From Candidatus Paceibacter sp. (GTDB lineage: Bacteria > Patescibacteriota > Minisyncoccia > UBA6257 > JAGOQP01), in the NCBI GenBank assembly GCA_020724905.1, contig DYGB01000001.1:1866-65865 (forward strand): a DNA stretch of 64,000 nt. Direction: 5' to 3'. This document shows, one piece after another, positions 13 through 41,616 of this stretch (position 1 is its first letter; each line of letters opens with the position of its first letter). The notes beneath the pieces are model-generated. The model had not been told where the DNA came from and ran no database searches. It saw only the letters and a program-made list of their open reading frames with translations. The translations under genes were made by a program, and so were the position numbers.

Positions 13-1743
13 ATGAAAAGCTCTGTATACACAGAAGCATTTAGCTCTCTCTACTACGAAAGACAAGATGCTATGCAAGCACTTAAACAAGGTATCTATC
101 TACTCCAGATGTCTGGATCAGGAGACACCTGGTCAGTTCTTGCAGGACTCGCAACAGGAGTGTGTGGAACTGATGATTATGCATGTATGGGGTCTGATAT
201 TGTTGTTGGATTTGTCCCTGTTGTAGGAACGGTAAAAGATGTTGTACAGACAGTCGTATCAACCCTTATTGGGTCAGGAATGAAAGTTGTTTCCTTCTTT
301 AACGGAGATGAGCAAACAAGTCAAAAAGCAGATGAGTATTTTATCTCTGCAGGATTTGCTGCCGTAGGAGTTGTTGGTGTATTTGTAGGAGCGTACTACA
401 TAGATGAGGTAGCCAAAGCTGCAAAGTATGGAAAAGTGATAGCAGAATCTGGTGCTCTCATGAAAAAAGCAGCTACGCTCAACATAGATGACCTTGGTCC
501 TTCAGCAGCAAAGATAGGAACAGCATCTGATAAGCTCAGATTCGTAAAAAAGGAAGCACAAGAACTCATTGATTTCAGAAATGACAAGCTTCCCCTTATC
601 CACTCCAATCAAGGAAATCTTCGAGGAGCGCAGTTTGAGTTTGACATGAAGTTACGAGCTCTTGGAAACACCTTCGAACACTTTGAAACAGCAACTGAAT
701 TTGTAGGAAGATACGGTACGGATGCACCAGAAGTAACACGAGGAATGGATGTGGTGCTCTGGGCAAAGCTCAAACCAAATGCCAAAGGAGCAAGTGTGCT
801 CGACTGGGATTACTCAACGACAAAAATAGGAGTTGGAGCAACGCGCCCATCAGATCTTTCATCGTCATATAAACAACTCACTGATGTGGACATCATACTC
901 AAAGACAAAGAAACTGGAGAATACGCACTCATCTTTGTAAAACGAGGTGATGACACAGAAGCGTTTGCTAAAAATTCAGAACAACTCTACAAAGTAAGAG
1001 AATCCATAGCAATGTCACCAGACATGGAAGTATTTAAAAATTCAGACACCTTCGGTATCGTTGGACCTGATTTAATGATACAGCCAAGCATGGTGGCAAA
1101 AAATTCAACATTCCAACCTCTTGATTCAATATATGTACACAACCTCAAAACAACCCCAGTGTTTGTTGATAGTATCTATTACACAACACAGGGTAATATC
1201 GCTCTTGAATTCCACACGGAAGGAGAAGAGTCAAACAAAGGTATGTATGTATACAGAAGCATCGCAGAAGAAAATGATTTCTCTCTTGTTTCCCCTCTTA
1301 TTGTTGGACATGGAACTGATCAATCGTATCATGAATATCTTTTTACCGATGATGGCATAGTAGAAGGAACAAAGTATCAGTACCTCATTCATCAAATTCA
1401 TAGTGTAGGATTTGAAACATTCATATCCGATACTATCAATTCCCCAACAATAACATCAGTGGAAGAAGAAGTAGAAGTAACCTTCTCTTTGCAACAAAAC
1501 TACCCTAATCCATTTAATCCAGAAACGGTAATTCCATACAGTGTTGCAGAACCAAGTCATGTACGAATAGACATATACAACATACTTGGAGAAAAAATAG
1601 AAACGCTTGAAAATACAAAAAAACAAGCGGGATTACACCAGGTTATATGGAATGCTACTCATATACCATCAGGTATGTATATCTACAACATATATACAGA
1701 CACTGGGTATAAAGAAGCAAAAAAAGCTCTTTTATTGAAATAA
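13..1743 (+). CDS. Secreted/surface protein with a T9SS-type (Por secretion) C-terminal sorting domain. The reading frame is open to the window edge, so the gene may start upstream.
   Basis: The last ~85 aa (FSLQQNYPNPFNPETVIPY...IDIYNILGEKIETL...AGLHQVIWNATHIPSGMYIYNIYTDTGYKEAKKALLLK) match the Por_Secre_tail/T9SS CTD consensus. There is no stop between nt 1 and the first ATG at 13. The N-terminal part could not be classified. Confidence 0.55.
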   Translation: MKSSVYTEAFSSLYYERQDAMQALKQGIYLLQMSGSGDTWSVLAGLATGVCGTDDYACMGSDIVVGFVPVVGTVKDVVQTVVSTLIGSGMKVVSFFNGDEQTSQKADEYFISAGFAAVGVVGVFVGAYYIDEVAKAAKYGKVIAESGALMKKAATLNIDDLGPSAAKIGTASDKLRFVKKEAQELIDFRNDKLPLIHSNQGNLRGAQFEFDMKLRALGNTFEHFETATEFVGRYGTDAPEVTRGMDVVLWAKLKPNAKGASVLDWDYSTTKIGVGATRPSDLSSSYKQLTDVDIILKDKETGEYALIFVKRGDDTEAFAKNSEQLYKVRESIAMSPDMEVFKNSDTFGIVGPDLMIQPSMVAKNSTFQPLDSIYVHNLKTTPVFVDSIYYTTQGNIALEFHTEGEESNKGMYVYRSIAEENDFSLVSPLIVGHGTDQSYHEYLFTDDGIVEGTKYQYLIHQIHSVGFETFISDTINSPTITSVEEEVEVTFSLQQNYPNPFNPETVIPYSVAEPSHVRIDIYNILGEKIETLENTKKQAGLHQVIWNATHIPSGMYIYNIYTDTGYKEAKKALLLK

Positions 1744-1781
1744 TGTTCAAACGCTCTCTTTTTAAGAGAGCGTTTTATTAT

Positions 1782-2618
1782 CTACACATCTCCATTACAA
1801 ATCATATGAGCTTCTCTTTGAGCCTGAAGAAGATCAGATGCTTGTAATGATAATTTCTTTGCTACCTTCTCTACATCAATATGTAATATATCTCTCGCAA
1901 GTAACATACCCTCCTGACTGAGTCTCTCAAGTGCATATAAGGAAAGTGAAGGAAGAATAGTAATAGGATAGAGGCGTTTTGATTCAATCATTGACTCAAG
2001 CCCCCCACCATGTGGATAGCGCCATGCAAAAATAGAAAGCCCAACACACTCAGCATATGAGATAGCCTGAGATGTACATTTTGTATTAGTAACGATCCAT
2101 CCTTCATTGCTAAATGTATCTTTCCTTCCTCGAGCCTGAATAATATCCTCGTACCGGGCCTCTACATACAGAGCAACTTTCAAGTCAGATTTTATCCCTG
2201 CATTATTATGATATTTACACTCAATAAATAATCGTTTATTTCCCTTTGTTGCAACAACATCTATTTCATAAGACACACATTTCCCTGCAATAGTAACACC
2301 AACCTCAGTACTATATCCATCTTCTTGAAGAATACGAGCAACGTACTGTTCAAAGACATACCCTGCAGGACCTAAACGAAAAATAGCTTTTTTCAAAGAA
2401 TACTTCACTGCAGCAGGAGCATCATGAGAGATAAGGAAACGGAGTGCTCGTCGATAAATGTCATCTGAACTCATGCCTTCAAAAACACCTCCTGAAACAA
2501 ATGAGGAGGTATCTTTTGCAACACGAGGTGTTGTACCAGCGCGGAGAAGAGATGTTTTTAATTTCTTTTCAGAAAAACGTTCTTTTTCTCCTGATGATTT
2601 TATAATAAAAGGTTTCAT
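1782..2618 (-). CDS. ATP-cone domain fused to a Mrr-like PD-(D/E)xK restriction-endonuclease domain.
   Basis: The N-terminus (MKPFIIKSSGEKERFSEKKLKTSLLRAG...) resembles an NrdR-type ATP-cone. The central YEIDVVATKGNKRLFIECKYH matches the Mrr_cat D...E-x-K nuclease core. Confidence 0.5.
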   Translation of the reverse strand: MKPFIIKSSGEKERFSEKKLKTSLLRAGTTPRVAKDTSSFVSGGVFEGMSSDDIYRRALRFLISHDAPAAVKYSLKKAIFRLGPAGYVFEQYVARILQEDGYSTEVGVTIAGKCVSYEIDVVATKGNKRLFIECKYHNNAGIKSDLKVALYVEARYEDIIQARGRKDTFSNEGWIVTNTKCTSQAISYAECVGLSIFAWRYPHGGGLESMIESKRLYPITILPSLSLYALERLSQEGMLLARDILHIDVEKVAKKLSLQASDLLQAQREAHMICNGDV

Positions 2619-2632
2619 GAAACAGTACTCTT

Positions 2633-2818
2633 CTAGAGAGATTTGTTCATCTTCTTGATGCAGTCAGTACATGCAAGAACACGCTTGCCTTCAAGCGTCT
2701 TTGCTTTCTGCAAATTAGGATACTTACGCTTCCATTGTGTCGGATTATAATTTCCTCGCAACTTCACACGCTTTCCTCCCATTTGAGAACCTTTTCCGCA
2801 TACATCACATGATTTCAT
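2633..2818 (-). CDS. rpmB: 50S ribosomal protein L28-like. The ORF-track start at 2938 is probably too long; the likely start is MKSCDVCGKG at 2818, with 2887 as an alternative.
   Basis: CDVCGKGSQMGGKRV...NPTQWKRKYPNLQK resembles the L28 N-terminal pattern (CxVTGK...SH..N.TKRRF.PNLQ). The upstream extension is not ribosomal-like. Confidence 0.55.
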   Translation of the reverse strand: MKSCDVCGKGSQMGGKRVKLRGNYNPTQWKRKYPNLQKAKTLEGKRVLACTDCIKKMNKSL

Positions 2819-3022
2819 ATCAGTATAATAGGAATTACTAAATCGGTGAGCCCTACGAACAAAAGACTTCTCCTGGCCAAAAGCCATGTGGGTGGTCGCA
2901 ATTATGTACCACGGCACATAATTATGTAGACCTCCCAAGAGAAATTGTTTGATCCAGAATCTTTTGGTAGGGCTCCCTTTCAGTATACCCTCAAAAACAT
3001 CCTCTCGTCAAACCATCCTTTT

Positions 3023-3616
3023 TTAAGCCTCTTTTTTCCATTCAATATCATACAACACTGCATCACGAGCATTTCGGTATGAGACAAGCTCACTCTCATC
3101 AAACCATAGTTTCAATTCATACTCAGCCTCAAATTCATTTGATGAGGCGTGTACAAGGTTTCGAACAGCACGACCATCAATATCAGCAATCTGATATGAA
3201 TCAACGGTAAAGTCTCCTCGAATTGTCCCCACATCAGAACTCAGCGGTTCTGTTGAACCAACAAGTTTTCGTACAATTTTTATCGCCTGATGGCCCTCAA
3301 TAGCAATTGCAACAACAGGACCAGAGGTAAGGAAAGAAACAAGTCCATGAATAATCTTTTCTCCTAGTGCGCGAGGATCTTCTCCTGTAGTATCCATTCC
3401 TGATTTCTTTTTCCCTTCAATAGATCGTTCTCCAAGCGCAGTTATTTCTTCTTCATTTTTTACATAGTGTGTATAAGCTCGCTTCTCATCAGGAACGATA
3501 AACTTCAACCCAACAATCTTTAACCCAACACGTTCAAAACGACTAATAATCTCTCCCACTAAACTTCTCTGTACTGCATCTGGTTTTAACAACACAAGTG
3601 TTCGTTCTTTTTTCAT
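3023..3616 (-). CDS. ndk: Nucleoside diphosphate kinase, a long form with a ~45-aa internal insertion.
   Basis: The NDK N-terminal motif is present (ERTLVLLKPDAVQRSLVGEIISRFERVGLKIVGLKFI), and the C-terminal region is conserved. Confidence 0.75.
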   Translation of the reverse strand: MKKERTLVLLKPDAVQRSLVGEIISRFERVGLKIVGLKFIVPDEKRAYTHYVKNEEEITALGERSIEGKKKSGMDTTGEDPRALGEKIIHGLVSFLTSGPVVAIAIEGHQAIKIVRKLVGSTEPLSSDVGTIRGDFTVDSYQIADIDGRAVRNLVHASSNEFEAEYELKLWFDESELVSYRNARDAVLYDIEWKKEA

Positions 3617-3624
3617 ATATATGA

Positions 3625-5034
3625 TTAGTTATCTTTTTTCTTCTCCACCGCTATATGGAGTTCGTTAAGTTGTTCCTGTGAAATAGGTGCTGGAGCATCC
3701 ATTAACAGATCACGCCCATCTCCTGTCTTTGGAAACGCAATAACTTCACGAATGTTTGGCTCACCTAACAAAAGTGAAATCAAACGATCAAGTCCCCATG
3801 CAATACCTCCATGTGGAGGAATTCCCAAAGAGAATGCCTTAAGCATATGTCCAAAGTGAGTCTCAATCTCCTCATCACTGTATCCAATGATAGAAAGAAC
3901 ACTTCGAAGTACATGTGGCTGATGAGCTCGAATACTTCCACCCCCTATTTCAAATCCGTTAAGAACAACATCATACTGTGTGGTAAGGATAGTATCAATA
4001 TCTCTCTTTTCTAAAATAGCATCAACATATTCCTTTTGAGGAGCTGAAAATGGATTGTGGGTAAAAGTCCATCCCCCACCATCAGTTTTCTCAAAAAATG
4101 GAAAATCAACAATCCATCCAAATGCTAATTCATGTGGATCACTTGTATCTTTACGAAGATCAGGTCGATCAGTTCCATACGTCTCCATTGCCTCCTTGTA
4201 GGTCAAGCGAGGAAATGGACGTTGAGAAATATGTTTTTGAGGAAACAGTGTTTCCACAAGATGCACAAGAAGCTCTTCATTTAACTGCATCACATCTTCT
4301 CGATCAACAAACGAAACCTCTAAATCCATCTGTGTAAATTCAGGTTGACGATCTCCTCGTGTATCCTCATCACGGAAACATCGAGCAATTTGAAAATAGC
4401 GCTCAACACCAGAAGCCATTAATAACTGCTTGTATTGCTGAGGAGCCTGAGGAAGTGCATAGAAAGATCCTTGATGTAATCGTGAAGGTACTACATAGTC
4501 ACGAGCTCCTTCTGGGGTAGAACGAGTAAGAATAGGTGTCTCAACTTCAAAGAATCCTTTTTGATCAAGCCATTGTCGAATTGTATGAATAATACGATGA
4601 CGCATACCAAGCATCGATGTAAGTCGCTTCCTTCGAAGATCAAGATATCGATACTTCATTCGCAATTCTTCTTTCACTTCATACCCATCACTCTCATGGA
4701 TATCAAATGGAGGAGTATCTGCTTCATTTAAAACTTCAATGCGATGGATATCAATTTCAATCTGTCCTGTTGGCAGGGCATCATTCACCATGTTATCAGG
4801 ACGCTTCTTTACTTCACCCTCAATACGAACAACCCACTCAGAACGAAGTGTGCTTGCAACAACATAGACAGACGCATCGGTCCATGGACCACAAACGGTC
4901 TGACATATACCACTTCTGTCACGAAGATCAAGAAAGATAATCTTTCCATGATCACGCCTGTTAGAAATCCACCCCTCAAGAACAACTGAAGATCCAACAT
5001 GATTAACACTTTCCCCTATCCACATCTGTTTCAT
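3625..5034 (-). CDS. aspS: Aspartyl-tRNA synthetase, class IIb, of the short archaeal/eukaryal type and possibly non-discriminating.
   Basis: An N-terminal OB-fold anticodon-binding region (GWISNRRDHGKIIFLDLRDRSG) is followed by class II motifs (FQIARCFRDEDTRGDRQPEFTQMD; GGGSIRAH). Confidence 0.8.
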   Translation of the reverse strand: MKQMWIGESVNHVGSSVVLEGWISNRRDHGKIIFLDLRDRSGICQTVCGPWTDASVYVVASTLRSEWVVRIEGEVKKRPDNMVNDALPTGQIEIDIHRIEVLNEADTPPFDIHESDGYEVKEELRMKYRYLDLRRKRLTSMLGMRHRIIHTIRQWLDQKGFFEVETPILTRSTPEGARDYVVPSRLHQGSFYALPQAPQQYKQLLMASGVERYFQIARCFRDEDTRGDRQPEFTQMDLEVSFVDREDVMQLNEELLVHLVETLFPQKHISQRPFPRLTYKEAMETYGTDRPDLRKDTSDPHELAFGWIVDFPFFEKTDGGGWTFTHNPFSAPQKEYVDAILEKRDIDTILTTQYDVVLNGFEIGGGSIRAHQPHVLRSVLSIIGYSDEEIETHFGHMLKAFSLGIPPHGGIAWGLDRLISLLLGEPNIREVIAFPKTGDGRDLLMDAPAPISQEQLNELHIAVEKKKDN

Positions 5035-5071
5035 ATACCACTTATCATACGAAAAAAGCAGAAAAACACAA

Positions 5072-5887
5072 CTATCGTTCTGTTATAACACGCAACTCAT
5101 CACCTTCCCACCACACAGATATTGTCCCATCACGATCAGTTCGAAATAACACCGAACCAATCTCCCCTACAATATCTTCTACATACGCGGCAGGATGCCC
5201 ATACGAATTCTCCCCCACACTCACCACCGATACCTGAGGAGAAACAGCTTTCAAAAACAGTGGAGAAGAAGAATATGCAGAACCATGATGAGGAATTTTA
5301 AGGACATGAGAAAAGAGTCGCTCCCCATACAGTTCCACCAACTCCTCCTCAACTGAGGCGGTAATATCACCGGTAAATAGTATACGCAGATTTCCAAGTG
5401 TTACATGAAGCACAAGAGATGCTTCATTAAGATCACGCATCACATCTTCTCCTGGAGGCCACAAAACACGAATACTCATATTCTCACCCTCTATACGATC
5501 ACCTTGAGAAAGAACAACACACGCAATAGAGTGCATACGACATAAGCTTTTCATCTCAGCCAAAGGAGGAGAAGAAAATGCGATAAAACCAATAGGAAAT
5601 GTTCTGATGATACGTGTCAGTCCTCCCATGTGATCATACTGATTGTGTGAGATAAAAATACCATCAATAAAACGAACCCCCTCTATCATCTCATTGATGT
5701 ATGAAAATACATGGTCATCTTTCCCTACATCAATAAGGAATCGTCTCCCCTGATAGGTAAGATACGCACCATCTCCCTGTCCCACTGAAATAAAATACAC
5801 TCCCTCTTCTTTTTCAAAAGAACCATCCCACACAAGAACAGCAGAGAAAAAAACACACACCACAATAAAAACATACCAATACCTCAT
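5072..5887 (-). CDS. comEC: Metallo-beta-lactamase domain of ComEC/Rec2, encoded as a separate ORF.
   Basis: ComEC-type MBL motifs are present (ISHNQYDHMGGL, IPHHGS). Its start overlaps the stop of the upstream membrane ORF by 4 nt. Confidence 0.75.
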   Translation of the reverse strand: MRYWYVFIVVCVFFSAVLVWDGSFEKEEGVYFISVGQGDGAYLTYQGRRFLIDVGKDDHVFSYINEMIEGVRFIDGIFISHNQYDHMGGLTRIIRTFPIGFIAFSSPPLAEMKSLCRMHSIACVVLSQGDRIEGENMSIRVLWPPGEDVMRDLNEASLVLHVTLGNLRILFTGDITASVEEELVELYGERLFSHVLKIPHHGSAYSSSPLFLKAVSPQVSVVSVGENSYGHPAAYVEDIVGEIGSVLFRTDRDGTISVWWEGDELRVITER

Positions 5888-7374
5888 GAAATAATTCGTG
5901 TATATAGAGATGATCGAGTATACCGACCAATGATATATACAATACTTATGTAATAGGCGACCACTCCAATAAATGGAAATGAAACATCTATTGTTCCAAT
6001 AGAGGAGAACACATTACTCACCCACAAACTCATATCAAGTAACACTGAAAGAAGTTTTACCCCCACAGAGGAAATCCCCCAAGAAACAATTCCCCCTACC
6101 CCAACAATTCCTGCTCCAAGCATAATAAAAGGAATAAGAGGAAGAATAAATATATTGGCAATAAGTCCTCCAAAAGAAACAGAAGAAAAGAAAAAGAGAA
6201 GAATTGGTAATGCTCCAATCTGAGCAGATACTGTTTCAACAAAAATTTTCCAAAGGGTATAGAGAAATGGAGATGATAACGACACAATTCCCACAAGACG
6301 AGGAGCACAATACAAAATACCCCACAAAGCAGAAAACGAAAGAAGAAATCCAACATCATATACAAGAAGGGAAGGACGGAACAAAACCATTCCAACAGCA
6401 ACACACACCATGACATACCAATGCCACTGAGGACGAGAAAAGAGAGTTCCGATAAGTACGACAGACGCCATAGCAGCAGCACGCACCACTGATGCCTCTG
6501 CCCCAACAAGAACAACAAAGACCCATACACACAATAAACTCATCCCCACACTCCATCGTCGAGAAAGAAAGAGACGAAAGAGTATCGCAATAATAAACAC
6601 TACAATTGATACATTATATCCAGACAGAGCAACAACATGAATAATGCCACTCCCAATAAGCTTCTCAACAAGATCATCGGAAAAAGAAACACTGTCTCTT
6701 CCAATAATAGTCCCTGCAGCAAATGAAGCCTCATCAAAAGGAAGAACTCTACGAAGAGATGATACAATAGACTCCCGAAACGCATATAGACTCCTCAACA
6801 CACTTCCCTCCCCCTCAAAGATAGAAAGGTTAGAGGGAAAAAATGAAACATACTCCACACCACGAGCTTTCAAATACATCGTATCAGAAGAAAGGGGCTC
6901 AAGGTCATCGTGTAATACAACTCTATCACCATACGAGACACCACTATCAAGAGAATGAAGTACTCCAATAGACATACCACTCTCATCTTCAATAATAAAA
7001 AATTGGTACGAATCATACAGCCGTGGAGAAGAAGAAACTCTTCCTTCATAGACACCATCAAGAGCGCTCTGAGAAACTGTATGCATGTGCTCATACCACA
7101 TCCCATACCCCTGCCCTATCCCCACAAACACACACCCAAAAATAAAGACCAACACATACCGACGATAGGAAGGAATAATAAAAAAAATACTTGCACCTGC
7201 AAGTAATACTGATCCACTATATGAAATCCCCACCCCTCCATAGACATAAAACAAAGCGACACCCCCAAGAAAACAGCAGAGGAGGATAAATACAATCCCT
7301 CCCCCTCCCTGCCTAGAAATCAAACCCTCTCTGTGCTGAGCTCCCCTCATCATAATGATGGAACACAGAGTCAA
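5884..7374 (-). CDS. comEC: Transmembrane part of ComEC/Rec2 (DUF4131 plus Competence domain). The start is uncertain, because the annotated start overlaps the CobO-like gene by ~60 nt.
   Basis: A polytopic membrane protein with the Competence-domain pattern, sitting directly upstream of the MBL ORF. Confidence 0.7.
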   Translation of the reverse strand: MTLCSIIMMRGAQHREGLISRQGGGGIVFILLCCFLGGVALFYVYGGVGISYSGSVLLAGASIFFIIPSYRRYVLVFIFGCVFVGIGQGYGMWYEHMHTVSQSALDGVYEGRVSSSPRLYDSYQFFIIEDESGMSIGVLHSLDSGVSYGDRVVLHDDLEPLSSDTMYLKARGVEYVSFFPSNLSIFEGEGSVLRSLYAFRESIVSSLRRVLPFDEASFAAGTIIGRDSVSFSDDLVEKLIGSGIIHVVALSGYNVSIVVFIIAILFRLFLSRRWSVGMSLLCVWVFVVLVGAEASVVRAAAMASVVLIGTLFSRPQWHWYVMVCVAVGMVLFRPSLLVYDVGFLLSFSALWGILYCAPRLVGIVSLSSPFLYTLWKIFVETVSAQIGALPILLFFFSSVSFGGLIANIFILPLIPFIMLGAGIVGVGGIVSWGISSVGVKLLSVLLDMSLWVSNVFSSIGTIDVSFPFIGVVAYYISIVYIIGRYTRSSLYTRIIS

Positions 7375-7843
7375 TACGACTCACTACATCAGCGCGATCG
7401 ACAATCGCACTTGGTGCATTACGTCCACTTGTAATGCAGATCATATCCTCAGGCACCTTTTCTAATACACTAATAACTCCTTCTTCACTAACGAGCCCTA
7501 AAGACAGCGCAACATGTACCTCATCAAGAATAACCATATCCCACTGCCCTGAAGTAATTGCCTTCTCTGCCTCCCTAAGAGTATCAAGAGCAGCAGCACT
7601 GTGCTCTGCAAAAGGAATCATGTCTCCTTTTATACCAACAAACCCTTTCCCTCCTCGGATAATAGAAAAATTCTTCTGTTGCTCTTTAGAAAGCATCTCT
7701 ACATAGAGATGTTCTCCAGATATCCAAGGACCTTTGATAAACTGAACCATACATGCTTTCTTTCCCTGTCCAACAGCACGGACCATATGTCCAAGACATG
7801 ATGTTGTTTTCCCTTTCCCATCTCCGGTAATAACAAATAACAT
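7313..7843 (-). CDS. CobO/CobA/BtuR-like P-loop protein (cob(I)yrinic acid a,c-diamide adenosyltransferase family).
   Basis: The N-terminal MLFVITGDGKGKTTSCLGH and later ...ILDEV fit the CobA/CobO fold family. Confidence 0.6.
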   Translation of the reverse strand: MLFVITGDGKGKTTSCLGHMVRAVGQGKKACMVQFIKGPWISGEHLYVEMLSKEQQKNFSIIRGGKGFVGIKGDMIPFAEHSAAALDTLREAEKAITSGQWDMVILDEVHVALSLGLVSEEGVISVLEKVPEDMICITSGRNAPSAIVDRADVVSRIDSVFHHYDEGSSAQRGFDF

Positions 7844-7846
7844 AGA

Positions 7847-9019
7847 CTAGACAATAAACCCCTGTTGCATAGACTTTACAATACGATCCTCAAGCACATC
7901 ATATCCATGATAGTATCCATACCATTCATTCCAGAGCGCCTCATACTGATGATAGGTATACATAGTGTCACGATGCACCACCACTGACATAGACACGTCC
8001 ATAATGTTAAAACTGTACCGTTTTTCTCCCTCAACATATCCCATCCACGAGGTATCATCCCACAGTGATGCTGATAAAAAAGAATGTTTCTGTGCAAATG
8101 AAAAGAATGACCTCTCAGCTTTGTACCAATGAAGCGCTTCAGGATTTACATGAGGAAATGAAAGACGCCAATCATTACTTCCTTCTTTTGAAAGATACCG
8201 CTGTACGATAAGAATATCTGTATCAGACACCTTTTCTCTTTCCTCTATAACGTCCCCTCGTAAAAGTGAACTCAACACACCACCAAAATCCTCATCCTCT
8301 TTGTGATGTTCAAATAATCGTGTATAAAATAACACCTCGTAGATATAGTGAAATAACAACAATACTGTTCGAAGTAACTGTCCTTCAAAAACTCGTGTGG
8401 TAGGAATAACAAAGATAAGACCGAGTTCTTTAAGATGGCTCACATTGTGATACTTCTTCTTGATAAATGTATCTGCATGAACAGCATACGTTTCAGAGAG
8501 CACATGAAGATGTAATGCTCGATATTCAAAATCAGAAAAAGAGAGTTTCTCATATAAAGGAAAAAATGATTCATGTAACCATGTCTTTTCTTCTAAGAAA
8601 CGAAGTCCTGCAGCAATATCATACAAAGACTCTTTTGAGATAAGTTCTTCAACAGAGCCATACCCCAACGCAGCAAGCGTCCCTACAGGAGGACAGGTAT
8701 ATAAAAGGCGTTCAAATACTTTCCATGAAAGTACCCACCCATGAGGAGAAGCAAGTTCAGTTACAACTTCTTTAAACACGGGAGAAAATGCATCAGGAGA
8801 AATCTGTGGAGAAGAAAAGTACTTTTCAAGATCTTTGTTAAGGTCTGAAACAAGAGAAAATAAATGAGTATTATCAGAAAAAGACTTTTTCTTTAACAAA
8901 AGTCTCTGATACATATCCTCAATACCCCCTCCTTTAGAAGAAAAAAGCGTATCAATACGTTCTACCTCTTCTTTTGGAAGGGAAAGCGCATCACAAAGCC
9001 ATTGGTATGCATCACTCAT
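7847..9019 (-). CDS. Hypothetical protein of ~390 aa with no recognisable domain. The start at MSDAYQ (9019) is preferred over 9055.
   Basis: A long open frame with coding-like composition. ATG at 9019 overlaps the PfkB stop by 2 nt, whereas 9055 would overlap by 40 nt. Confidence 0.4.
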   Translation of the reverse strand: MSDAYQWLCDALSLPKEEVERIDTLFSSKGGGIEDMYQRLLLKKKSFSDNTHLFSLVSDLNKDLEKYFSSPQISPDAFSPVFKEVVTELASPHGWVLSWKVFERLLYTCPPVGTLAALGYGSVEELISKESLYDIAAGLRFLEEKTWLHESFFPLYEKLSFSDFEYRALHLHVLSETYAVHADTFIKKKYHNVSHLKELGLIFVIPTTRVFEGQLLRTVLLLFHYIYEVLFYTRLFEHHKEDEDFGGVLSSLLRGDVIEEREKVSDTDILIVQRYLSKEGSNDWRLSFPHVNPEALHWYKAERSFFSFAQKHSFLSASLWDDTSWMGYVEGEKRYSFNIMDVSMSVVVHRDTMYTYHQYEALWNEWYGYYHGYDVLEDRIVKSMQQGFIV

Positions 9020-10011
9020 GATAGTGGTGTTACCTGTATTGGGAATTCCTTCCAACGAGGAGAAGAAAACGCATCTTTCTTTAACGCTCCCTCAGAAGCT
9101 CCTTTGTGTTCCACAATTGATGTTGCATTCGCACTCCCCCTACGAAGTGCTTCCTGTATCACATCTACATCAAACGTATCGTGCCCAAGAAGTGTAGAAA
9201 TAAATCCAGAACCAAACCCATCACCAGCCCCTGTTCTGTCAACAAGTTTCTCTTCAGGAAACGATCCAGCCTCGTATCGATATGATCCATCAGAAACAAT
9301 TACTCCTTTTTTTCCTCGTGTCACCACAACAATACCTGCAACTTGTTTATCTAATACTGCAAATACTTTCTCTGGAGTATCAAAGGAAATACCGGTAATT
9401 ATAGCAGCCTCATGTTCATTAACAAATAACACATCAACAAAAGGAAGGTGTTCCCATAACTCTTTAGATCCTTCTTTGATGTGTACACTACTTGGGTTAA
9501 GGGCAACACGAATACCCTCTTTTTTTGCATGGGAAAGAAGACGATCAAATGTCTTGTATGAATAACCCGGAAGAGATACATACCACCACTGTGCAGCAAG
9601 TTTTTCTCCAACAATAGCATCAAGAGAAAACTGATCAAGCGCTCCGTGATGTGTGATAATACTTCTCTCACCATCTTGTAAAAGCACCACTGCCTGTCCT
9701 GTAGCACCCTCAACACGTTCAACCATATCATGAGAAACTCCTTCACGATCCAACCGTTCATATAACAAATTGGCAAACACATCATTCCCCACAGCACTCA
9801 CTAGTGCGGTAGAGTATCCTTGCCGTGAAAATGTAATTGCTGCATTAACAGCATTTCCTCCAGTCGTACTATACACTCCCTCAGATGCATGTTTTTCTCC
9901 AAACGGAATAGCTAGCGCTTTTCCACTTGGGTTCTCCCAAGTAACATAAGGAAAAGAAACATTCCAGAATGAATCAATAGTACTTGAACCAATACAGATA
10001 ACATCTTTCAT
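9016..10011 (-). CDS. PfkB-family carbohydrate kinase (ribokinase-like).
   Basis: The C-terminal DTTGAGDGFGSGFISTLL motif and an N-terminal ICIGSSTID-like glycine-rich region. Confidence 0.75.
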   Translation of the reverse strand: MKDVICIGSSTIDSFWNVSFPYVTWENPSGKALAIPFGEKHASEGVYSTTGGNAVNAAITFSRQGYSTALVSAVGNDVFANLLYERLDREGVSHDMVERVEGATGQAVVLLQDGERSIITHHGALDQFSLDAIVGEKLAAQWWYVSLPGYSYKTFDRLLSHAKKEGIRVALNPSSVHIKEGSKELWEHLPFVDVLFVNEHEAAIITGISFDTPEKVFAVLDKQVAGIVVVTRGKKGVIVSDGSYRYEAGSFPEEKLVDRTGAGDGFGSGFISTLLGHDTFDVDVIQEALRRGSANATSIVEHKGASEGALKKDAFSSPRWKEFPIQVTPLS

Positions 10012-10013
10012 AC

Positions 10014-11012
10014 CTAACTACGTTTTCTTTTTATAACTTTTTGAGTAGCAATAATAATATCAGAAGAAAGAAGTTTGTACTGTTTGTACAATTCATACCC
10101 AGTACCTGATTGACCAAATTGTCCATCAACACCAATAAACTCCATAGGAACAGGATTCTTTTTTGAAAGTAGTTCTGAAATTGCAGATCCAATTCCTCCA
10201 TAGATAGAATGTTCTTCAACACTCACCACAGCCCCCGCTCGAGCTACCCATGAGAGAATCTCTTTGGTATCAAGAGGAACAATTGAAGGAACGTTAATAA
10301 CGACACTATGAATCTTTTTCTTTTCAAGATCACGAGCTGCCTTAAGAGCTTCATGAAGTACCGGTCCTGCGCCAATCAACACAACATCAACACGTTTTGT
10401 TTTAGGAATCCAGAGTGGATAGGCTCTCCCTATCTGAAATGGTGTATCTTTTGTTGTGATAACAGGTGTTTTCTCTCTTTGTAAACGAATATATACAGGA
10501 CCCCTCACTCCTGCTGCAGCAACAGTAGCTCGTTGTGCCTCAAGCGCATCAAGAGGAACAAGAACTCTCATATTTGCCATAGAACGCATCAGTGCAATAT
10601 CTTCAAGACTCTGATGTGTTGCTCCATCAGGACCAGTTAACAGCCCCGCATGATGTCCTGCTATTTTGACATTCGAATCGTTATACGCACACAACGTACG
10701 AATCTGTTCCCAGTTTCTTCCAGGAGAAAATGTTGCATACGAGTTAATAAAAGGAATCTTTCCAGAAATACCCATCCCTGCAGCAACAGCTGCCATATTC
10801 TGCTCAGCAACACCAACATCAAAGAATCGATCAGGATAGAGACGAGAAAACCAGTGACATCGAGTTGATTCTTCCAAATCAGCGGTAATAACAACAACGT
10901 TTTCATTTTCTCCAGCTTCTAAAAGACCCCTCCCATACCCATCTCGAAGAGCCTGCATGTCTTCATGCCCTGAAAAAAGTGTGTGTGAAAGTGAAAGCGC
11001 TTTGTGTATCAT
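10014..11012 (-). CDS. tkt: Transketolase C-terminal subunit (pyrimidine-binding and C-terminal domains).
   Basis: FDVGVAEQNMAAVAAGMGISGKIPF and the transketolase C-terminal region. Confidence 0.8.
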   Translation of the reverse strand: MIHKALSLSHTLFSGHEDMQALRDGYGRGLLEAGENENVVVITADLEESTRCHWFSRLYPDRFFDVGVAEQNMAAVAAGMGISGKIPFINSYATFSPGRNWEQIRTLCAYNDSNVKIAGHHAGLLTGPDGATHQSLEDIALMRSMANMRVLVPLDALEAQRATVAAAGVRGPVYIRLQREKTPVITTKDTPFQIGRAYPLWIPKTKRVDVVLIGAGPVLHEALKAARDLEKKKIHSVVINVPSIVPLDTKEILSWVARAGAVVSVEEHSIYGGIGSAISELLSKKNPVPMEFIGVDGQFGQSGTGYELYKQYKLLSSDIIIATQKVIKRKRS

Positions 11013-11347
11013 GCTTCTTCTTTACCTAAACGAATAATACGAACGTGAAACCAAAAGAGTGGTAACCCTACAAGAATAAACGCAAGTGACTGAGAAAGTT
11101 CTCTGTGAGTACGAGCTGTTTGTTCTTTTTGTTGATATTCCTCTAACTGTTGTTGATCTATATCTTTCTCTCCATCAGGTGTTTCAAGCCGCATAGGGTA
11201 TGCATAGTATGAATCAGCATCGGTAAATACAAATGAGCGAAATCCAAGATCAATCATCTGCACAGATCCAATAACTAAAATAATGAGCCCAACTGATGCA
11301 AAGATATACAGATACAATGTTCGAATGAATGTAGATTGAAGTGCCAT
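11009..11347 (-). CDS. Small membrane protein wedged between the two transketolase subunit genes.
   Basis: Two hydrophobic segments flank a charged middle. Its stop overlaps the tkt-C start by 4 nt. Confidence 0.4.
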   Translation of the reverse strand: MALQSTFIRTLYLYIFASVGLIILVIGSVQMIDLGFRSFVFTDADSYYAYPMRLETPDGEKDIDQQQLEEYQQKEQTARTHRELSQSLAFILVGLPLFWFHVRIIRLGKEEA

Positions 11348-14319: not shown

Positions 14320-15345
14320 CTAGGAACGGTGTTGAGCAATTGCTTCTGCATGAGCACGAAGTGTTGCTACATACCCCCACTCATTGTCATACCATGAAAG
14401 AATCTTTACCAAATCTCCATCAACAACACGGGTATAGGAAAGATCAACAAGAGCTCCATAGGGCATACCAATAACATCTGAAGAAACGATAGGATCATGT
14501 GTCACAGCAAAGGTTCCTCTCCATCGTGGGTCAGAAGCTCCTTTCTCTAAAATACTATTCACTTCCTCAACACTTGTTTTCTTCTTTGATACGAATACAA
14601 CATCAGCAACTGATCCAGCAATAACAGGAACACGAAAGGCAATACCATCAAATGTATCTGCAAATGATGCTTGTGCACGCCCCAGTGCATGAGCAGCTCC
14701 TGTGCTAGAAGGAATAATATTCTGAGCAGCAGCACGTCCTCGTCTCACATCCTTTCCTTTTTGCACTGTATCAACAAGACTCTGTGTTGATGTATACCCA
14801 TGGACCGTACTCAACATTGCCTTTGTAATACCAATTGTTTCAGAAAGAAGCGCAAGTGGAGGAGAAATTGCATTTGTCGTACATGATGCATTCGAAGAAA
14901 TAGAGCAGGTAGCAAGGTCACCCTCATTAACTCCAATGAGGACTGTTTTCCCCCTCTCCCCATCATCATCCTTAGAAGGAGCGCTCATGAGTACATGTGA
15001 AGCTCCTGCGCTCAAATGAGCAGAGGCTTTTTCATAGGTAGTAAATACACCTGTTGATTCGATAACAATATCAACACCTAGTTCTTTCCAGGGAAGCTTA
15101 GTAGGATCAGGTTCATGAAAAAACGGAATGCTTTTATCACCAACGATAATATGATCACCCTGAACTTTTACCGACTCACCAAAGGTACGATATACAGAAT
15201 CGTATGTGAGGAGATAAGCAAGATTATCTATATTACCAAGGTCATTAACCCCAACAATCTCACACCACTCTTGATTATAGACCTGCCTAAAAAATAATCG
15301 TCCGATACGACCAAATCCATTTATTGCAATACGTACTGGTTTCAT
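14320..15345 (-). CDS. gap: Glyceraldehyde-3-phosphate dehydrogenase.
   Basis: VRIAINGFGRIGR Rossmann motif and the active-site SCTTN. Confidence 0.85.
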   Translation of the reverse strand: MKPVRIAINGFGRIGRLFFRQVYNQEWCEIVGVNDLGNIDNLAYLLTYDSVYRTFGESVKVQGDHIIVGDKSIPFFHEPDPTKLPWKELGVDIVIESTGVFTTYEKASAHLSAGASHVLMSAPSKDDDGERGKTVLIGVNEGDLATCSISSNASCTTNAISPPLALLSETIGITKAMLSTVHGYTSTQSLVDTVQKGKDVRRGRAAAQNIIPSSTGAAHALGRAQASFADTFDGIAFRVPVIAGSVADVVFVSKKKTSVEEVNSILEKGASDPRWRGTFAVTHDPIVSSDVIGMPYGALVDLSYTRVVDGDLVKILSWYDNEWGYVATLRAHAEAIAQHRS

Positions 15346-15390: not shown

Positions 15391-16575
15391 TTATCGTATC
15401 TCTGCTCCTAACTCTTCTTGAGTTTTTTGAATAATGGTTCCTTGGATATTATTTACCTCATCATTGGTAAGGGTTCTTTCTGGAGAACGATACACGATAC
15501 GAAATGTGTAACTCACTTTCCCAGAACCAAATTTTTCTTTATTTCGATAGGTGTCAGTAAGTTTAACCTCCTCAATAAGATCATCAGCACAATCACGAAC
15601 AATTTCATAATAGTTATTCAAGCTTGTTTCCTCAGGAACAATAAAAGAAATATCTCGATAGGTCATAGGGTACTTACTCACCTCTTCATATACACTATCA
15701 AGACCTCTAAACTGATCTACGATACGAGGATCATCAGACCAAAATACACGGATATCAGGAATCTGCATCTTTGCCATAGCAAGTCGCTCAAGTCCAAATC
15801 CAAATGCCCATCCGTTATATACTTCAGGATCAACTCCCATACGTTTAAGAACTTCAGTGTGCACCACTCCGGCACCAACGACTTCAAGCCATTGTTTCTC
15901 TTCTTTTTCCTCTTCATCATTCCCCTTTCTCATAACTTCAATTTCAATCTGCGTACTTGGATTCGTAAACGGAAAAGTATCTTCTAAAAATCGATAGGTA
16001 ATACCATCTCCATAGATAGCTTTGGTAATAGCGGTTAACACTTCCTGTAGTTCAGGAATTCCAATAATATGTTTTTCTTTTTTGCAGATATAGAGTCCAT
16101 CTACCTGATGGAATACAGGAAAGTGATTCCTGTCTATCTCATCTTTCCGAAATACTTTCCCATGCGCTAAAAGACCCACCTCTCCTTCTTGTTCCAATTC
16201 TTCCATCGTTTCTTTCCGACGAAGATAGTAGGGCCACATCGTTGTCGTATGTGTTCGAAGTACATGAGTATCGTCAACATAATATGTATCAGTTTCATTC
16301 CGACTTGGATGATCTGAGGGTGTGTTTAAAATATCAAAATTATCCTCAACACTGACAATTTCAGGAAAATGCATTACATCAAACTGTGTAAACATATCCA
16401 ATGCAAGCACTGCATCAACAATATATTTGATAGGAGACCTTTCTTTTCGAGACAGATCAGGTAAGTGTAAAAGACGTTGCAAGCGAAGACCCTTAACATC
16501 TTCGCGTGTTTCAACGTCTTTTCTCAGTTTTTCACTGACAGGATCTGTGATATCGATATAATGTCTATCTGTCAT
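15391..16575 (-). CDS. pheS: Phenylalanyl-tRNA synthetase alpha-type catalytic domain fused to a C-terminal FDX-ACB anticodon-binding domain (monomeric, mitochondrial-like architecture). The start is trimmed to MTDRHYIDIT because the longer frame runs into tRNA-Leu.
   Basis: Class II motifs are present (HPSRNETDTYYV; FRKDEIDRNHFPVFHQVDG; GWAFGFGLERLAMAKM). The C-terminal ~95 aa (SKYPMTYRDISFIV...YRSPERTLTNDEVNNIQ...LGAEIR) match the PheT-type FDX-ACB domain. Confidence 0.8.
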   Translation of the reverse strand: MTDRHYIDITDPVSEKLRKDVETREDVKGLRLQRLLHLPDLSRKERSPIKYIVDAVLALDMFTQFDVMHFPEIVSVEDNFDILNTPSDHPSRNETDTYYVDDTHVLRTHTTTMWPYYLRRKETMEELEQEGEVGLLAHGKVFRKDEIDRNHFPVFHQVDGLYICKKEKHIIGIPELQEVLTAITKAIYGDGITYRFLEDTFPFTNPSTQIEIEVMRKGNDEEEKEEKQWLEVVGAGVVHTEVLKRMGVDPEVYNGWAFGFGLERLAMAKMQIPDIRVFWSDDPRIVDQFRGLDSVYEEVSKYPMTYRDISFIVPEETSLNNYYEIVRDCADDLIEEVKLTDTYRNKEKFGSGKVSYTFRIVYRSPERTLTNDEVNNIQGTIIQKTQEELGAEIR

Positions 16576-16649
16576 AATAATCCCAGTGTACTGAAAAAAA
16601 GACTGAAAAACAAATAAAAACACCTCTTTAAAAGAGATGTTTATATCTG

Positions 16650-16735
16650 TGCGCGAGAGAGGACTCGAACCTCCACGGGACGTAATGCCCACTACCACCT
16701 CAAGGTAGCGCGTCTACCAATTCCGCCACCCGCGC
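16650..16735 (-). tRNA. tRNA-Leu(GAG) with a long variable arm.
   Basis: The reverse complement folds as a cloverleaf with acceptor stem GCGCGGG/CTCGCGC. The anticodon loop TTGAGGT gives anticodon GAG. The T-loop is TTCGAGT. CCA is not encoded. Confidence 0.8.
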
Positions 16736-30927: not shown

Positions 30928-32379
30928 TTATTTGTCTTTCCCTAATGCCTTTCGAATAACGTCTTTTAACTCTTTGACTGCTGTAGGTTTCTTTTCTCTT
31001 TCCTTGTGAGGTTTTTTCTTCCTCTCATCTTGTTTTAGTGTTTCAGCGAGAGACCGCTCCCCCTGTCGCGCAATCATCTCAGCAACACGCTCATGACTTC
31101 CAGCATATTCTTCCTGAATCTTTTTTTCAACCTCTCCTCGAGGAAGGGTAAACTTGTCACGAGAGTATTCCAAGATAACGTCATAGAGTGATTGTTTGGG
31201 GAGCGGTGGTGGAGGCAGTGTTCGAGCTGAGAAAGGACGAGATGACACCCCATCAATCATCAAACGGATATAGATATAGGTATTAGGAAGATTCACAAAA
31301 TCACTCGCCTCAAATTCCTCAAAGAATTCTTTTTCTAAAAATTCTGCATCATCTGCTCCTACCCGAAATACAATCATTGTTCCCACGTTACCAAAAATAG
31401 CAGATTTCACCCGTTCATTGTCATCAAGCTGATCAATATACTGGTGAGCAAGAATCAAACATAATCGATACTTTCGTGCCTCAGAAAGAATCGTTGCAAA
31501 TGATTCTGTTGCAAAGTTCTGAAACTCATCAACATAGAGATAAAAATCACGTCTCTCTTCTTGAGGAGTATCAACACGAGACATCGCAGCAAGCTGAAGT
31601 TTCGTAATAACCATAGCTCCAAGAAGCGCGGAGTTATCTTCACCAATTTTTCCTTTTGAAAGATTCACCACAAATATTTTCCCCTCATCCATGATACGTC
31701 GTGCATCAAATGATGAGTGTTCTTGTCCGATAATATTTCGAATCAACGGATTGGAGACAAACTGTCCCACCTTGTTCTGGATTGCAGCAACGGCCTCTGT
31801 TTCAAGTCGTTGTGTATAGCGAGCAAACTCATCAGCCCAGAATGAACGAACGATAGGGTCCTGAAGATTATCAACAATATTTTTCCGATACTCTTTATCA
31901 GAAAACATCTTCATAATCCCGAGCAATGTCGAATTAGGATACTCCAGCAATGCAAGAAGCGTATTGTTAAGAATATATTCCATGCGGGCAGACCAGGCAT
32001 CAGGCCATATCTTTTTAAACACAGACATAAGTCCAGAAGCAACCAAATGTCTTTGTTCAAAATCAACACGTTCAAGTGGATTAAATGCGATGGGGTAATT
32101 TGTATCAGCAGGGTTAAAATACACTACATCATTAACCCGCTCTTCAGGAATAAAGTGAAGTACTTCTTCAGCAACCTCACCATGTGGATCAACAATACAG
32201 ACTCCCTTCCCTGCTTTGATATCAGAAAGAACCATATTCAAAAGCAAGGTACTTTTCCCAGTACCTGATTTCCCAATGACATACATATGCTGTCTACGGT
32301 CAGCAGTTTTTACACCAAATATCCGTTCTTCATTTCGAAACGTTGTTTTCCCAAGGTGTAGAATATCTTTTTCATCCAT
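30928..32379 (-). CDS. P-loop ATPase of the FtsK/HerA/TraG superfamily (AAA_10/DUF87-like, T4SS coupling-protein-like).
   Basis: Walker A (YVIGKSGTGKSTLLLN), CIVDPHGE, Walker B (LYVDEFQNF) and ARKYRLCLILAHQYIDQL. Confidence 0.6.
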   Translation of the reverse strand: MDEKDILHLGKTTFRNEERIFGVKTADRRQHMYVIGKSGTGKSTLLLNMVLSDIKAGKGVCIVDPHGEVAEEVLHFIPEERVNDVVYFNPADTNYPIAFNPLERVDFEQRHLVASGLMSVFKKIWPDAWSARMEYILNNTLLALLEYPNSTLLGIMKMFSDKEYRKNIVDNLQDPIVRSFWADEFARYTQRLETEAVAAIQNKVGQFVSNPLIRNIIGQEHSSFDARRIMDEGKIFVVNLSKGKIGEDNSALLGAMVITKLQLAAMSRVDTPQEERRDFYLYVDEFQNFATESFATILSEARKYRLCLILAHQYIDQLDDNERVKSAIFGNVGTMIVFRVGADDAEFLEKEFFEEFEASDFVNLPNTYIYIRLMIDGVSSRPFSARTLPPPPLPKQSLYDVILEYSRDKFTLPRGEVEKKIQEEYAGSHERVAEMIARQGERSLAETLKQDERKKKPHKEREKKPTAVKELKDVIRKALGKDK

Positions 32380-41100: not shown

Positions 41101-41616
41101 TTTTAAATACCCTCTTTCTGCGATACGAGAAAACACCCACCACAGACTCTCTATATATTCAGGAGCATAGGTAACATATGCATTATCAAGATCAAGCCAG
41201 TATCCAATGCGTTCGGTAAGTTTCTCCCACTCATCTTTGTAGCGAAAGATAGATTCTCGTGCTTTGTTATTAAACGTATCAATACCAATACGCTCAATGT
41301 CTTTTTTTGTTTGTATCCCAAGGCTTTTTTCAGTTTCTATCTCAATAGGGAGTCCATGTGTATCCCACCCTCCCTTTCGAGGAACACGGTACCCTTGCAT
41401 TGTTTTGTACCGAAGAAAGACATCTTTCATAGCACGAGCAAGAATATGGTGTATTCCAGGACGTCCATTCGCATACGGAGGACCTTCCCAAAAATAAAAT
41501 TCCTCTCCCTCTGTATTGTGAGAAAGGCTTTTTTCAAAAATCTTTTTCTTCTTCCATAACGAAAGAATGTTTTCTTCTACTTCCGATGCATTAAATGCTT
41601 TAAGTTTTTCTAACAT
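38146..41616 (-). CDS. ileS: Isoleucyl-tRNA synthetase with a complete histidine-phosphatase (PGAM-like, RHG) domain inserted between the WxISRxRYWGxP motif and the KMSKS region.
   Basis: HIGH region (PPYANGRPGIHH), GWDTHGLPIE, the editing domain (TTTPWT...GTGLVHIAPSFGEDD) and KMSKS. The ~190-aa insert is LLIRHGEARAN...SHGDTLRM. Confidence 0.9.
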   Translation of the reverse strand: MLEKLKAFNASEVEENILSLWKKKKIFEKSLSHNTEGEEFYFWEGPPYANGRPGIHHILARAMKDVFLRYKTMQGYRVPRKGGWDTHGLPIEIETEKSLGIQTKKDIERIGIDTFNNKARESIFRYKDEWEKLTERIGYWLDLDNAYVTYAPEYIESLWWVFSRIAERGYLKESYKVTPYCYRCQTALANHELGQPGVYQTVSDPSVYVLFPLKGKKNEFLLVWTTTPWTLSANVAIALDPKVIYHQFSLEGKKVWAHKLPEGYEETSKVKKKGSEMVGWEYLPAVPYEGEVSLPFDRYYVRGADFVSTDEGTGLVHIAPSFGEDDFSLVFPDGLKEEHILPQTITADGKVAEGCIGEGKPIKEADSVISAYLEEKGLLLKGGHGDHEYPFCWRCSSPLIYWARRAWFFEVSSLRKELLKANKGVSWVPAHIKEGRFGEWIAQAKDWAISRERYWGTPLPIWKSDTGEIRVVKSLEDLTTYRAHSNTFLLIRHGEARANVEGWWASGKETKEYTSRLTEKGKEEVAHLAKKLVQENVDIIVSSPYTRTKQTAELLSRELGVKRVIVDERIKEREAGIYAHKAISEFYGFFSQKDIDPVMDAPEGAESLHDVRVRVTEFYKEMQRKYPDKTIAVVSHGDTLRMFRAVMEHLSMEEMIKKEKKHFIPTGGYVSCVSDNLPIDALGMIDMHRPYVDEVFLRSDSGEVMKRVPDVADVWFDSGSMPYGSTHFPFKAEGKKPHGFPADFISEGIDQTRGWFYTLMATAVLLGLGTPYKNVVSLGLVLDKNGQKMSKSKGNVVDPWALIEKYGIDAIRWYFFTINAPGEPKNFDEADVGNILRRFLLVMYNSFSFLELYGKKKLSLSAAPESEHVLDVWILARLGETEQIVKDAMDEYDITRASSAVETFVDDMSRWYIRRSRRRLQKPETKKEWEMTSSVLGYVLLSLSKLTAPFIPFFSEALYQSLKNLYTIKGADSVHLEGWPEHGFDTRYKKLIADMQWVRDAASEVLAQRASAQIKVRQPLATLSCKRKKLTGTYASQLITLLQDEVNVKRIVFGVSQEEDFVLDTTLSEDLKDEGDIREFIRFVQGLRQDAGYAFHDEITLHIQGHHDVISFLKNHERILKKEVHAVAFVYEPGTSVDAKKELSLRGTSMTIGVKK

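Follow-up and report, generated by a model that had tools for sequence, protein, structure and literature searches.

Introduction

Which enzyme charges tRNA-Phe in a bacterium whose pheS-like gene has no pheT beside it? Textbooks present bacterial phenylalanyl-tRNA synthetase (PheRS) as an (alpha-beta)2 heterotetramer whose beta subunit contains a proofreading site, and treat the monomeric form as an organelle speciality. The question is raised by a gene located on the minus strand at positions 15391..16575 of a 64,000-nucleotide stretch of contig DYGB01000001.1 from Candidatus Paceibacter sp., hereafter called the window, which encodes a PheS-type catalytic core and a PheT-type anticodon-binding domain in a single chain. 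A preliminary description of this DNA had likened the arrangement to that of the monomeric mitochondrial enzyme. Here, we report that the gene most probably (we put the probability at roughly 0.8) encodes a housekeeping, stand-alone, single-chain PheRS of the mitochondrial type, in a Paceibacteria (Wolfebacteria-like) organism. Enzymes of this kind were known from mitochondria, and databases already contained the sequences; what is new is the bacterial membership of the family. A literature search found no description of single-chain PheRS in bacteria of the candidate phyla radiation (CPR), nor of SrmL, a PheS-related protein family with which the window protein has to be compared.

Results

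A PheS-type core and a PheT-B8-type domain share a single chain

The coding sequence, taken from the open reading frame (ORF) listing and its translation, comprises 394 amino acids (aa) plus the stop codon, with an ATG at 16575 and the stop codon at 15391-15393. A longer ORF starting with GTG reaches 16698. Because that version would overlap the tRNA-Leu(GAG) gene at 16649-16735, the ATG at 16575 is the sensible start. An identical protein (P0001) is present on public contigs of 145 kb and 181 kb.

Both domains proposed in the preliminary description were recovered with scores well over the Pfam gathering scores. The class II PheS-type catalytic domain (PF01409, tRNA-synt_2d) spans aa 43-289 (15709..16449, E 2.9e-58) and contains motifs 2 and 3, the FPF phenylalanine pocket and Ala257. 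The FDX-ACB anticodon-binding domain, which is of the PheT-B8 type, occupies aa 300-394 (15394..15678) and includes D341, Y343, S355 and R394; it matches the PF03147 profile from end to end (positions 1-94/94, E 3.4e-25), as had been anticipated for the C-terminal part of the chain. The Pfam scan of the window protein revealed no domain beyond these two, and in particular no PF02912, the N-terminal coiled coil of PheS. Among the PheT domains, only B8 is represented. The class II motifs that had been ascribed to the alpha subunit can be read directly in the sequence as DHPSR (aa 88), LRTHTT (aa 106), GKVFRKDEIDRNHFPVFHQVDG (motif 2, from aa 139), FPFTNPS (aa 201), GAGVVH (aa 234) and GWAFGFGLERL (motif 3, from aa 255).

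Outside the two Pfam envelopes, the N-terminal region (aa 1-42, 16450..16575, minus strand like all other parts of the gene) has no Pfam match and is not PF02912. It is helical, with helices at aa 12-23 and 27-37 in the AlphaFold2 (AF2) model, where the predicted local distance difference test score (pLDDT) is ~90. A linker or hinge at aa 290-299 (15679..15708) lies between the two envelopes and aligns with the region of human mitochondrial PheRS (mtPheRS) around the hinge residues Ser322-Lys323 (PMC7540514). Furthermore, a Lys/Glu-rich surface insertion of ~14 aa (VMRKGNDEEEKEEK, 15895..15936) is found in only some family members; most homologues are gapped at this place in the family alignment, and the pLDDT of the AF2 model is lower there (67-71).

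Human mitochondrial PheRS is the best match by sequence and by fold

HMMER comparison with PDB sequences returned human mtPheRS (3cmq, 5mgu and others) as the best matches, at E ~3e-54 and over both domains. The best bacterial PheS in the PDB aligned with the catalytic core only (E 9e-41), and PheT chains aligned solely with aa 295-394, which is the B8 domain, at E 1e-9 or weaker. E. coli PheS shares 36% identity with the catalytic core over 243 aa. The AF2 model, built with 22 homologues in the alignment, reached a pLDDT of 84.6 and a predicted TM score (pTM) of 0.83. When it was compared with the PDB using Foldseek, the top matches were the closed human mtPheRS structures 3cmq and 5mgh (TM 0.75, root-mean-square deviation ~3.2 Å, 400 columns, E ~6e-31), and bacterial PheS chains spanned just half of the model. 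The human mitochondrial enzyme is the top match both in sequence and in fold across the two domains, in agreement with the mitochondrial-like, monomeric architecture suggested earlier.

Residues expected to act in catalysis and anticodon recognition are conserved. R143 of motif 2, F201-P202-F203, A257 and R264 of motif 3 do not vary among 22 family members, and A257 aligns with Ala294 of E. coli PheS. The Phe pocket is canonical, and so are the ATP-binding motifs. In human mtPheRS, the anticodon base G34 is contacted by Asp364, Phe366, Ser375 and Arg414, and the D364G substitution abolishes activity (PMC7540514). After the numbering of that study had been matched to the 3cmq chain via the hinge residues Ser322-Lys323, these four positions aligned with D341, Y343, S355 and R394 of the window protein (HMMER), all four being invariant in the family. 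The residue stacking on G34 is Tyr instead of the Phe of the human enzyme, as in the Thermus beta subunit. With both the pocket and the G34 contacts conserved, the protein thus shows every feature that a synthetase specific for tRNA-Phe(GAA) should have.

Like the mitochondrial and organellar enzymes (human FARS2, yeast MSF1; TIGR00469; 3CMQ, 3TUP), the window protein is a PheS-type core followed by FDX-ACB. It shares with them the fold over the ~400 aligned columns, the Phe-pocket motifs, the four G34-recognition positions (Asp, an aromatic residue, Ser and a C-terminal Arg) and the absence of an editing domain. It differs from them in its bacterial host, in having no targeting peptide and in lacking an insertion by which the catalytic domain of many eukaryotic sequences is split. 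With the canonical bacterial (alpha-beta)2 enzyme, it shares a core homologous to PheS and a C-terminal domain homologous to PheT B8. However, PF02912, B1, B3/B4 (the editing domain), B5 and B6/B7 are missing from the window protein, no beta gene lies nearby, and the anticodon-binding domain is provided in cis on the catalytic chain.

The single-chain PheRS is widespread and highly conserved in Paceibacteria

More than 120 protein clusters share 60-94% identity with the window protein, and all have the same two Pfam domains. Their named sources are Wolfebacteria, Paceibacterota, Parcubacteria or simply 'Patescibacteria group'. A scan of GTDB with one genome per species revealed that at least 525 species genomes of Paceibacteria/Parcubacteria encode a relative of the single-chain PheRS. 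The best 80 of these at least 525 relatives share 47-72% identity with the window protein and belong to Wolfe-, Nealson-, Harrison-, Staskawicz-, Yanofsky-, Lipton-, Niyogi-, Giovannoni-, Nomura- and Zambryskibacteria and to Spechtbacterales. The gene is also found in the complete genomes AP024682.1 (561,860 bp) and OZ246412.1 (626,281 bp).

Conservation of the protein exceeds that of its neighbours. Between the window and four relatives, PheRS identity amounts to 66-72%, compared to 59-61% for GAPDH, 55-57% for L19, 58-62% for RelA/SpoT and 42-61% for TopA, as expected of an essential enzyme.

The gene for another related protein (P0126, 8001-9371 of locus L093) contains in-frame TGA codons where Gly is conserved, from which the use of genetic code 25 is predicted. 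Named relatives of P0126 belong to Candidatus Gracilibacteria, and a second CPR class therefore has the single-chain type of PheRS.

In OZ246412.1, the PheRS gene is adjoined by a gene cluster (1694-8626 of locus L006, minus strand) that includes a short AlaRS-like gene (640 aa, tRNA-synt_2c and tRNA_SAD). The rest of this cluster consists of a radical SAM gene, two genes with no Pfam match (308 aa and 273 aa) and one of 657 aa that faintly matches the lantibiotic-dehydratase N-domain. It may be a tRNA-dependent peptide-modification cluster.

In a neighbour-joining tree, the CPR family is sister to the organellar enzymes

Among 1.84 billion cluster representatives, 352 matched the window protein at E 1e-30 or better. 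The top 150 of these 352 are mostly single-chain proteins made of the core and the anticodon-binding domain, canonical PheS appearing only from about rank 84. Eukaryotic organellar enzymes (chytrid, fern, locust and mite) are found within the same top 150, together with many compact single-chain forms of 340-380 aa that pass the TIGR00469 cut-off.

A phylogeny of the catalytic domain, an analysis proposed in the preliminary description, was computed by neighbour joining (NJ) from 54 sequences and 208 columns with Kimura distances and 200 bootstraps. All single-chain forms stood apart from the sampled canonical PheS (200/200), with an outgroup that is thin, as it includes neither Alphaproteobacteria nor canonical CPR PheS. 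The Paceibacteria family, P0121, an Oligoflexia protein and the Gracilibacteria form constitute one clade (183/200), and the eukaryotic and compact (virus-like) forms constitute its sister clade (193/200). In this 208-column tree, the CPR family does not branch inside the organellar clade. This NJ topology argues against a recent transfer from eukaryotes and can be reconciled with a fusion that arose once.

The tree bears on an explanation suggested by the PDB search, whose best match is the human mitochondrial enzyme: the gene could be a eukaryotic FARS2 that was acquired recently, or the contig could be contaminated with eukaryotic DNA. We regard both as exceedingly improbable. The window carries unmistakably bacterial genes (rpoB, rpoC and topA, a tmRNA gene, and genes for competence and type IV secretion), and its local gene order matches that of the complete 562-kb genome AP024682.1. 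Furthermore, the family occurs in at least 525 species, its clade is sister to the organellar-plus-compact clade and not nested within it, and the window protein lacks the insertion that splits the eukaryotic catalytic domain. Eukaryotic contamination and recent transfer were rejected on the basis of gene context, distribution and tree position.

Nucleocytovirus PheRS was previously placed with organellar sequences (PMC11304981). These organelle-like viral enzymes and the compact forms of 340-380 aa share with the window protein the single-chain build (core plus FDX-ACB) and fall in the same overall NJ clade. The compact forms differ from it in passing TIGR00469, in grouping with the eukaryotic organellar clade and in lying on mobile- or viral-looking DNA, whereas the CPR gene resides on the chromosome and keeps its gene order among close relatives. 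One compact form of ~350 aa, which passes the mitochondrial-type cut-off, is encoded at 10001-11065 of locus L008, on a 160-kb contig of dense, co-directional and mostly unannotated genes that looks like mobile DNA; a comparison of this virus-like contig with PHROGs gave one weak match only, to a family of unknown function. A full-length relative lies at 613851-614798 of LR745206.1, a record of 634,780 bp labelled 'uncultured phage'.

Canonical pheS and pheT were sought in the window, in related loci and in a marker table

The preliminary description had reported that no pheT adjoins the gene. This holds for the entire 64-kb window, as PheT is not among its ORFs of at least 480 aa and a tblastn search with E. 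coli PheT matched only the C-terminal part of the PheRS ORF. When E. coli and Firmicute PheT were compared by tblastn with the window and 86 related loci (1.44 Mb), no B1, B3/B4 or B5 was found, in a search that has no statistical power: the control proteins RpoB, RpoC, LeuRS and IleRS were seen in only 0-3/82 loci. Because these single-copy genes are equally rare, the pheT negative in the 1.44 Mb was discarded as evidence. The canonical PheS nearest to the query are Firmicute-like and Bacteroidota-like (L009 and L010), and both have PF02912.

More informative counts are held in the marker table of Anantharaman et al. 2016 (PMC5079060, Supplementary Data 4), which covers 43 single-copy genes and has no column for PheRS beta. 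The count of 'Phenylalanyl tRNA synthetase alpha' is exactly 1 in each of five 99.9%-complete genomes that carry the single-chain gene, namely Wolfebacteria RIFCSPHIGHO2_01_FULL_48_22 (P0009), Giovannonibacteria RIFOXYD1_FULL_48_21 (gene in L083), Nealsonbacteria RIFOXYB1_FULL_40_15 (L033), Yanofskybacteria RIFCSPLOWO2_01_FULL_42_49 (L043) and Liptonbacteria RIFCSPLOWO2_01_FULL_53_13 (L052). If the counted gene is the single-chain form, these genomes therefore have no alpha subunit with which a beta subunit could pair.

The idea that this organism may depend on a single-chain PheRS devoid of an editing subunit is supported indirectly, because the family is present in at least 525 genomes, is highly conserved, keeps the residues for Phe and G34, and belongs to five genomes with a single count. 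Several points weigh against the housekeeping role. The searches for pheT and canonical pheS cover the window and the flanking 1.44 Mb rather than whole genomes. The count of 1 presumes that the pipeline behind the marker table scored the single-chain protein as 'PheRS alpha', as the JGI pipeline does, where the family is labelled 'phenylalanyl-tRNA synthetase alpha chain'. Neither the window (ARAGORN) nor 60 related loci yielded a tRNA-Phe gene. That the protein is monomeric, active and devoid of editing is deduced from homology. Finally, the window protein scores under the cut-offs of all three NCBIfam models concerned: 252.1 against 258.35 for pheS_mito (TIGR00469), 255.8 against 300 for SrmL (NF051887) and 185.4 against 237.45 for pheS (TIGR00468).

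The miss is narrow for pheS_mito, which is passed by P0121 (264.3) and by a Harrisonbacteria protein in L034 (265.4), while nine other Paceibacteria members score 224-256. For the SrmL model, ten other Paceibacteria members score 229-268. Ten divergent Paceibacteria members likewise fall between the models, just one of them passing pheS_mito. Scores under all three cut-offs explain why these proteins are labelled 'hypothetical protein' by NCBI.

The window protein differs from SrmL in motifs, anticodon contacts and gene context

The highest-scoring NCBIfam model is that of SrmL ('PheS-related mystery ligase'), a family with the same two-domain layout and a similar length. Hence the proposal that the window gene is an accessory PheS-like paralogue, an SrmL-type, regulatory or otherwise non-translational ligase that coexists with a normal pheS-pheT pair elsewhere in the genome, beyond the window and flanks covered by the pheT searches. 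A relative of the gene is also found in a metagenome-assembled genome of Oligoflexia, and Oligoflexia are expected to have ordinary PheST. We consider such a paralogue quite unlikely. True SrmL proteins score 415 bits (P0205) and 402 bits (P0235), whereas the window protein stays under the cut-off of 300. Their motifs are altered to HPYT, NNISR or DSISR, and LECG or LEAG, where the window protein has the canonical FPFT, DHPSR and GAG; the aromatic, Ser and Arg contacts to G34 are lost in SrmL, whereas all four contacts are kept here. The gene contexts differ as well, since the single SrmL setting at hand combines a reverse transcriptase with large unannotated genes, whereas the window gene lies among rplS, tRNA-Leu and gap. 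Furthermore, each of the five near-complete genomes has one PheS-type gene, and it is unlikely that a redundant synthetase would be conserved above L19 in genomes of 0.56-0.63 Mb. The differences in motifs, G34 contacts and context, together with the score, therefore rule out that the window gene is an SrmL.

The SrmL locus itself (P0235, at 605-1741 of L091) is followed, up to position 9741, by two unannotated proteins of ~740 aa, a reverse transcriptase and a PLD-like gene. PADLOC returned only generic reverse-transcriptase matches in this neighbourhood, which, as a single locus, looks like an accessory or defence island.

B2-like tRNA-binding domains accompany the enzyme in some lineages

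In one Patescibacteria sub-lineage, a PheRS of 507 aa (9581-11104 of L070) carries a PheT-B2-like tRNA_bind domain (PF01588) fused N-terminally. In L064, L073 and L081, a separate PheT-B2-like tRNA_bind ORF of 137-145 aa lies directly upstream of the PheRS gene; in L064, for instance, the tRNA_bind gene occupies 9537-9950 and the single-chain PheRS 9962-11182. These mini proteins belong to a large family (684 matches of ~140 aa each, with PF01588 only) that includes Doudnabacteria among its named sources and is labelled 'PheRS beta chain' by JGI. The fused domain and the upstream genes fit a tRNA-charging enzyme that retains pieces of a dismantled beta subunit. The picture is that of a beta subunit reduced to its tRNA-binding pieces, with B8 fused to alpha everywhere, B2 kept in some lineages, and the editing and scaffold domains gone.

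The same observations allow the single chain to be seen as a housekeeping catalytic chain that needs a partner, be it the mini-beta protein, a remnant of the beta subunit or a factor that edits in trans, or that dimerises like other class II synthetases. The position of the tRNA_bind gene directly upstream of the PheRS gene, its fusion to PheRS in L070 and the size of the mini-beta family speak for a partner. We nevertheless hold this to be unlikely, as a B2-like domain, fused or adjacent, is found in 4/80 loci only, and no mini tRNA_bind gene lies beside the PheRS gene or anywhere else in the 64-kb window. Furthermore, the human enzyme, which has the same two-domain build, is an active monomer according to two studies (PMC7540514; PMC3275996). 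A stand-alone enzyme remains our preferred reading of the window gene.

The gene lies in a conserved chromosomal neighbourhood

Both neighbours named in the preliminary description were found in place. The gap gene (14320-15345) adjoins the PheRS gene downstream, and tRNA-Leu(GAG), predicted by ARAGORN at 16649..16735 on the minus strand, lies directly upstream. Between tRNA-Leu and the PheRS start codon, a consensus scan detected a terminator-like hairpin (16618..16642, minus strand), a pattern match in which a T-run follows an 11-bp stem. Beyond the tRNA gene, rplS and then a pseudouridine synthase gene (rluD-like) lie further upstream. tRNA-Leu(GAG) is likewise found upstream of the PheRS gene in L004, L011-L018 and L024, which are most of the closest loci. 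The order pseudouridine synthase, rplS, tRNA-Leu(GAG), PheRS, with gap nearby, is common to the window and AP024682.1.

Elsewhere in the window, a 1156-aa IleRS-like class I synthetase is encoded at 38146-41616 (minus strand). A PF00300 insert of the histidine-phosphatase or phosphoglycerate-mutase type (aa 489-655, E 2e-32) splits its core in two, which is unusual for an aminoacyl-tRNA synthetase. At 13-1743 of the window (plus strand), this small-genome bacterium also encodes a protein of 576 aa that ends in a secretion sorting domain of the Por/T9SS type (PF18962), and at 30928-32379 (minus strand) a type IV secretion coupling protein (TrwB/TraG-like).

Discussion

By analogy with mitochondrial PheRS, the window enzyme would act as a monomer. 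Its catalytic core would make Phe-AMP and then transfer Phe to A76 of tRNA-Phe, and its anticodon-binding domain, closed in the AF2 model, would swing open with the linker (aa 290-299) as a hinge and dock G34 of tRNA-Phe(GAA). In this lineage, the single-chain enzyme would replace the bacterial (alpha-beta)2 PheRS. As the B3/B4 domain is absent within the protein, discrimination against Tyr and meta-Tyr would be left to the active site or to trans factors.

The fusion is probably old, as it would be common to Paceibacteria and Gracilibacteria and sister to the organellar clade. A broader scenario, which we offer tentatively and regard as doubtful, is that the fusion of PheS with B8 arose once, that it is ancestral in much of the CPR (Paceibacteria, Doudnabacteria-like lineages and Gracilibacteria) and there displaced the (alpha-beta)2 enzyme together with its editing site, and that organellar, giant-virus and huge-phage PheRS descend from it. 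Mitochondrial PheRS would then derive from a CPR-like episymbiont or from a virus, rather than from the alphaproteobacterial ancestor or from an independent fusion in eukaryotes. With the CPR family as a bacterial sister group, the origin of mitochondrial PheRS becomes a testable question.

The family also exposes a gap in annotation, as an apparently essential synthetase that falls between three NCBIfam models is labelled 'hypothetical protein' in NCBI records. This gap can distort completeness estimates and marker-gene sets that expect both PheS and PheT.

In a very large bacterial radiation, with at least 525 species genomes from one scan, the single-chain form appears to be the only PheRS, which contradicts the textbook rule of a heterotetrameric bacterial enzyme. 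The prediction that follows is that these organisms may translate without cis-editing of Tyr- or meta-Tyr-tRNA-Phe, which would bear on the fidelity of translation in ultra-small symbionts.

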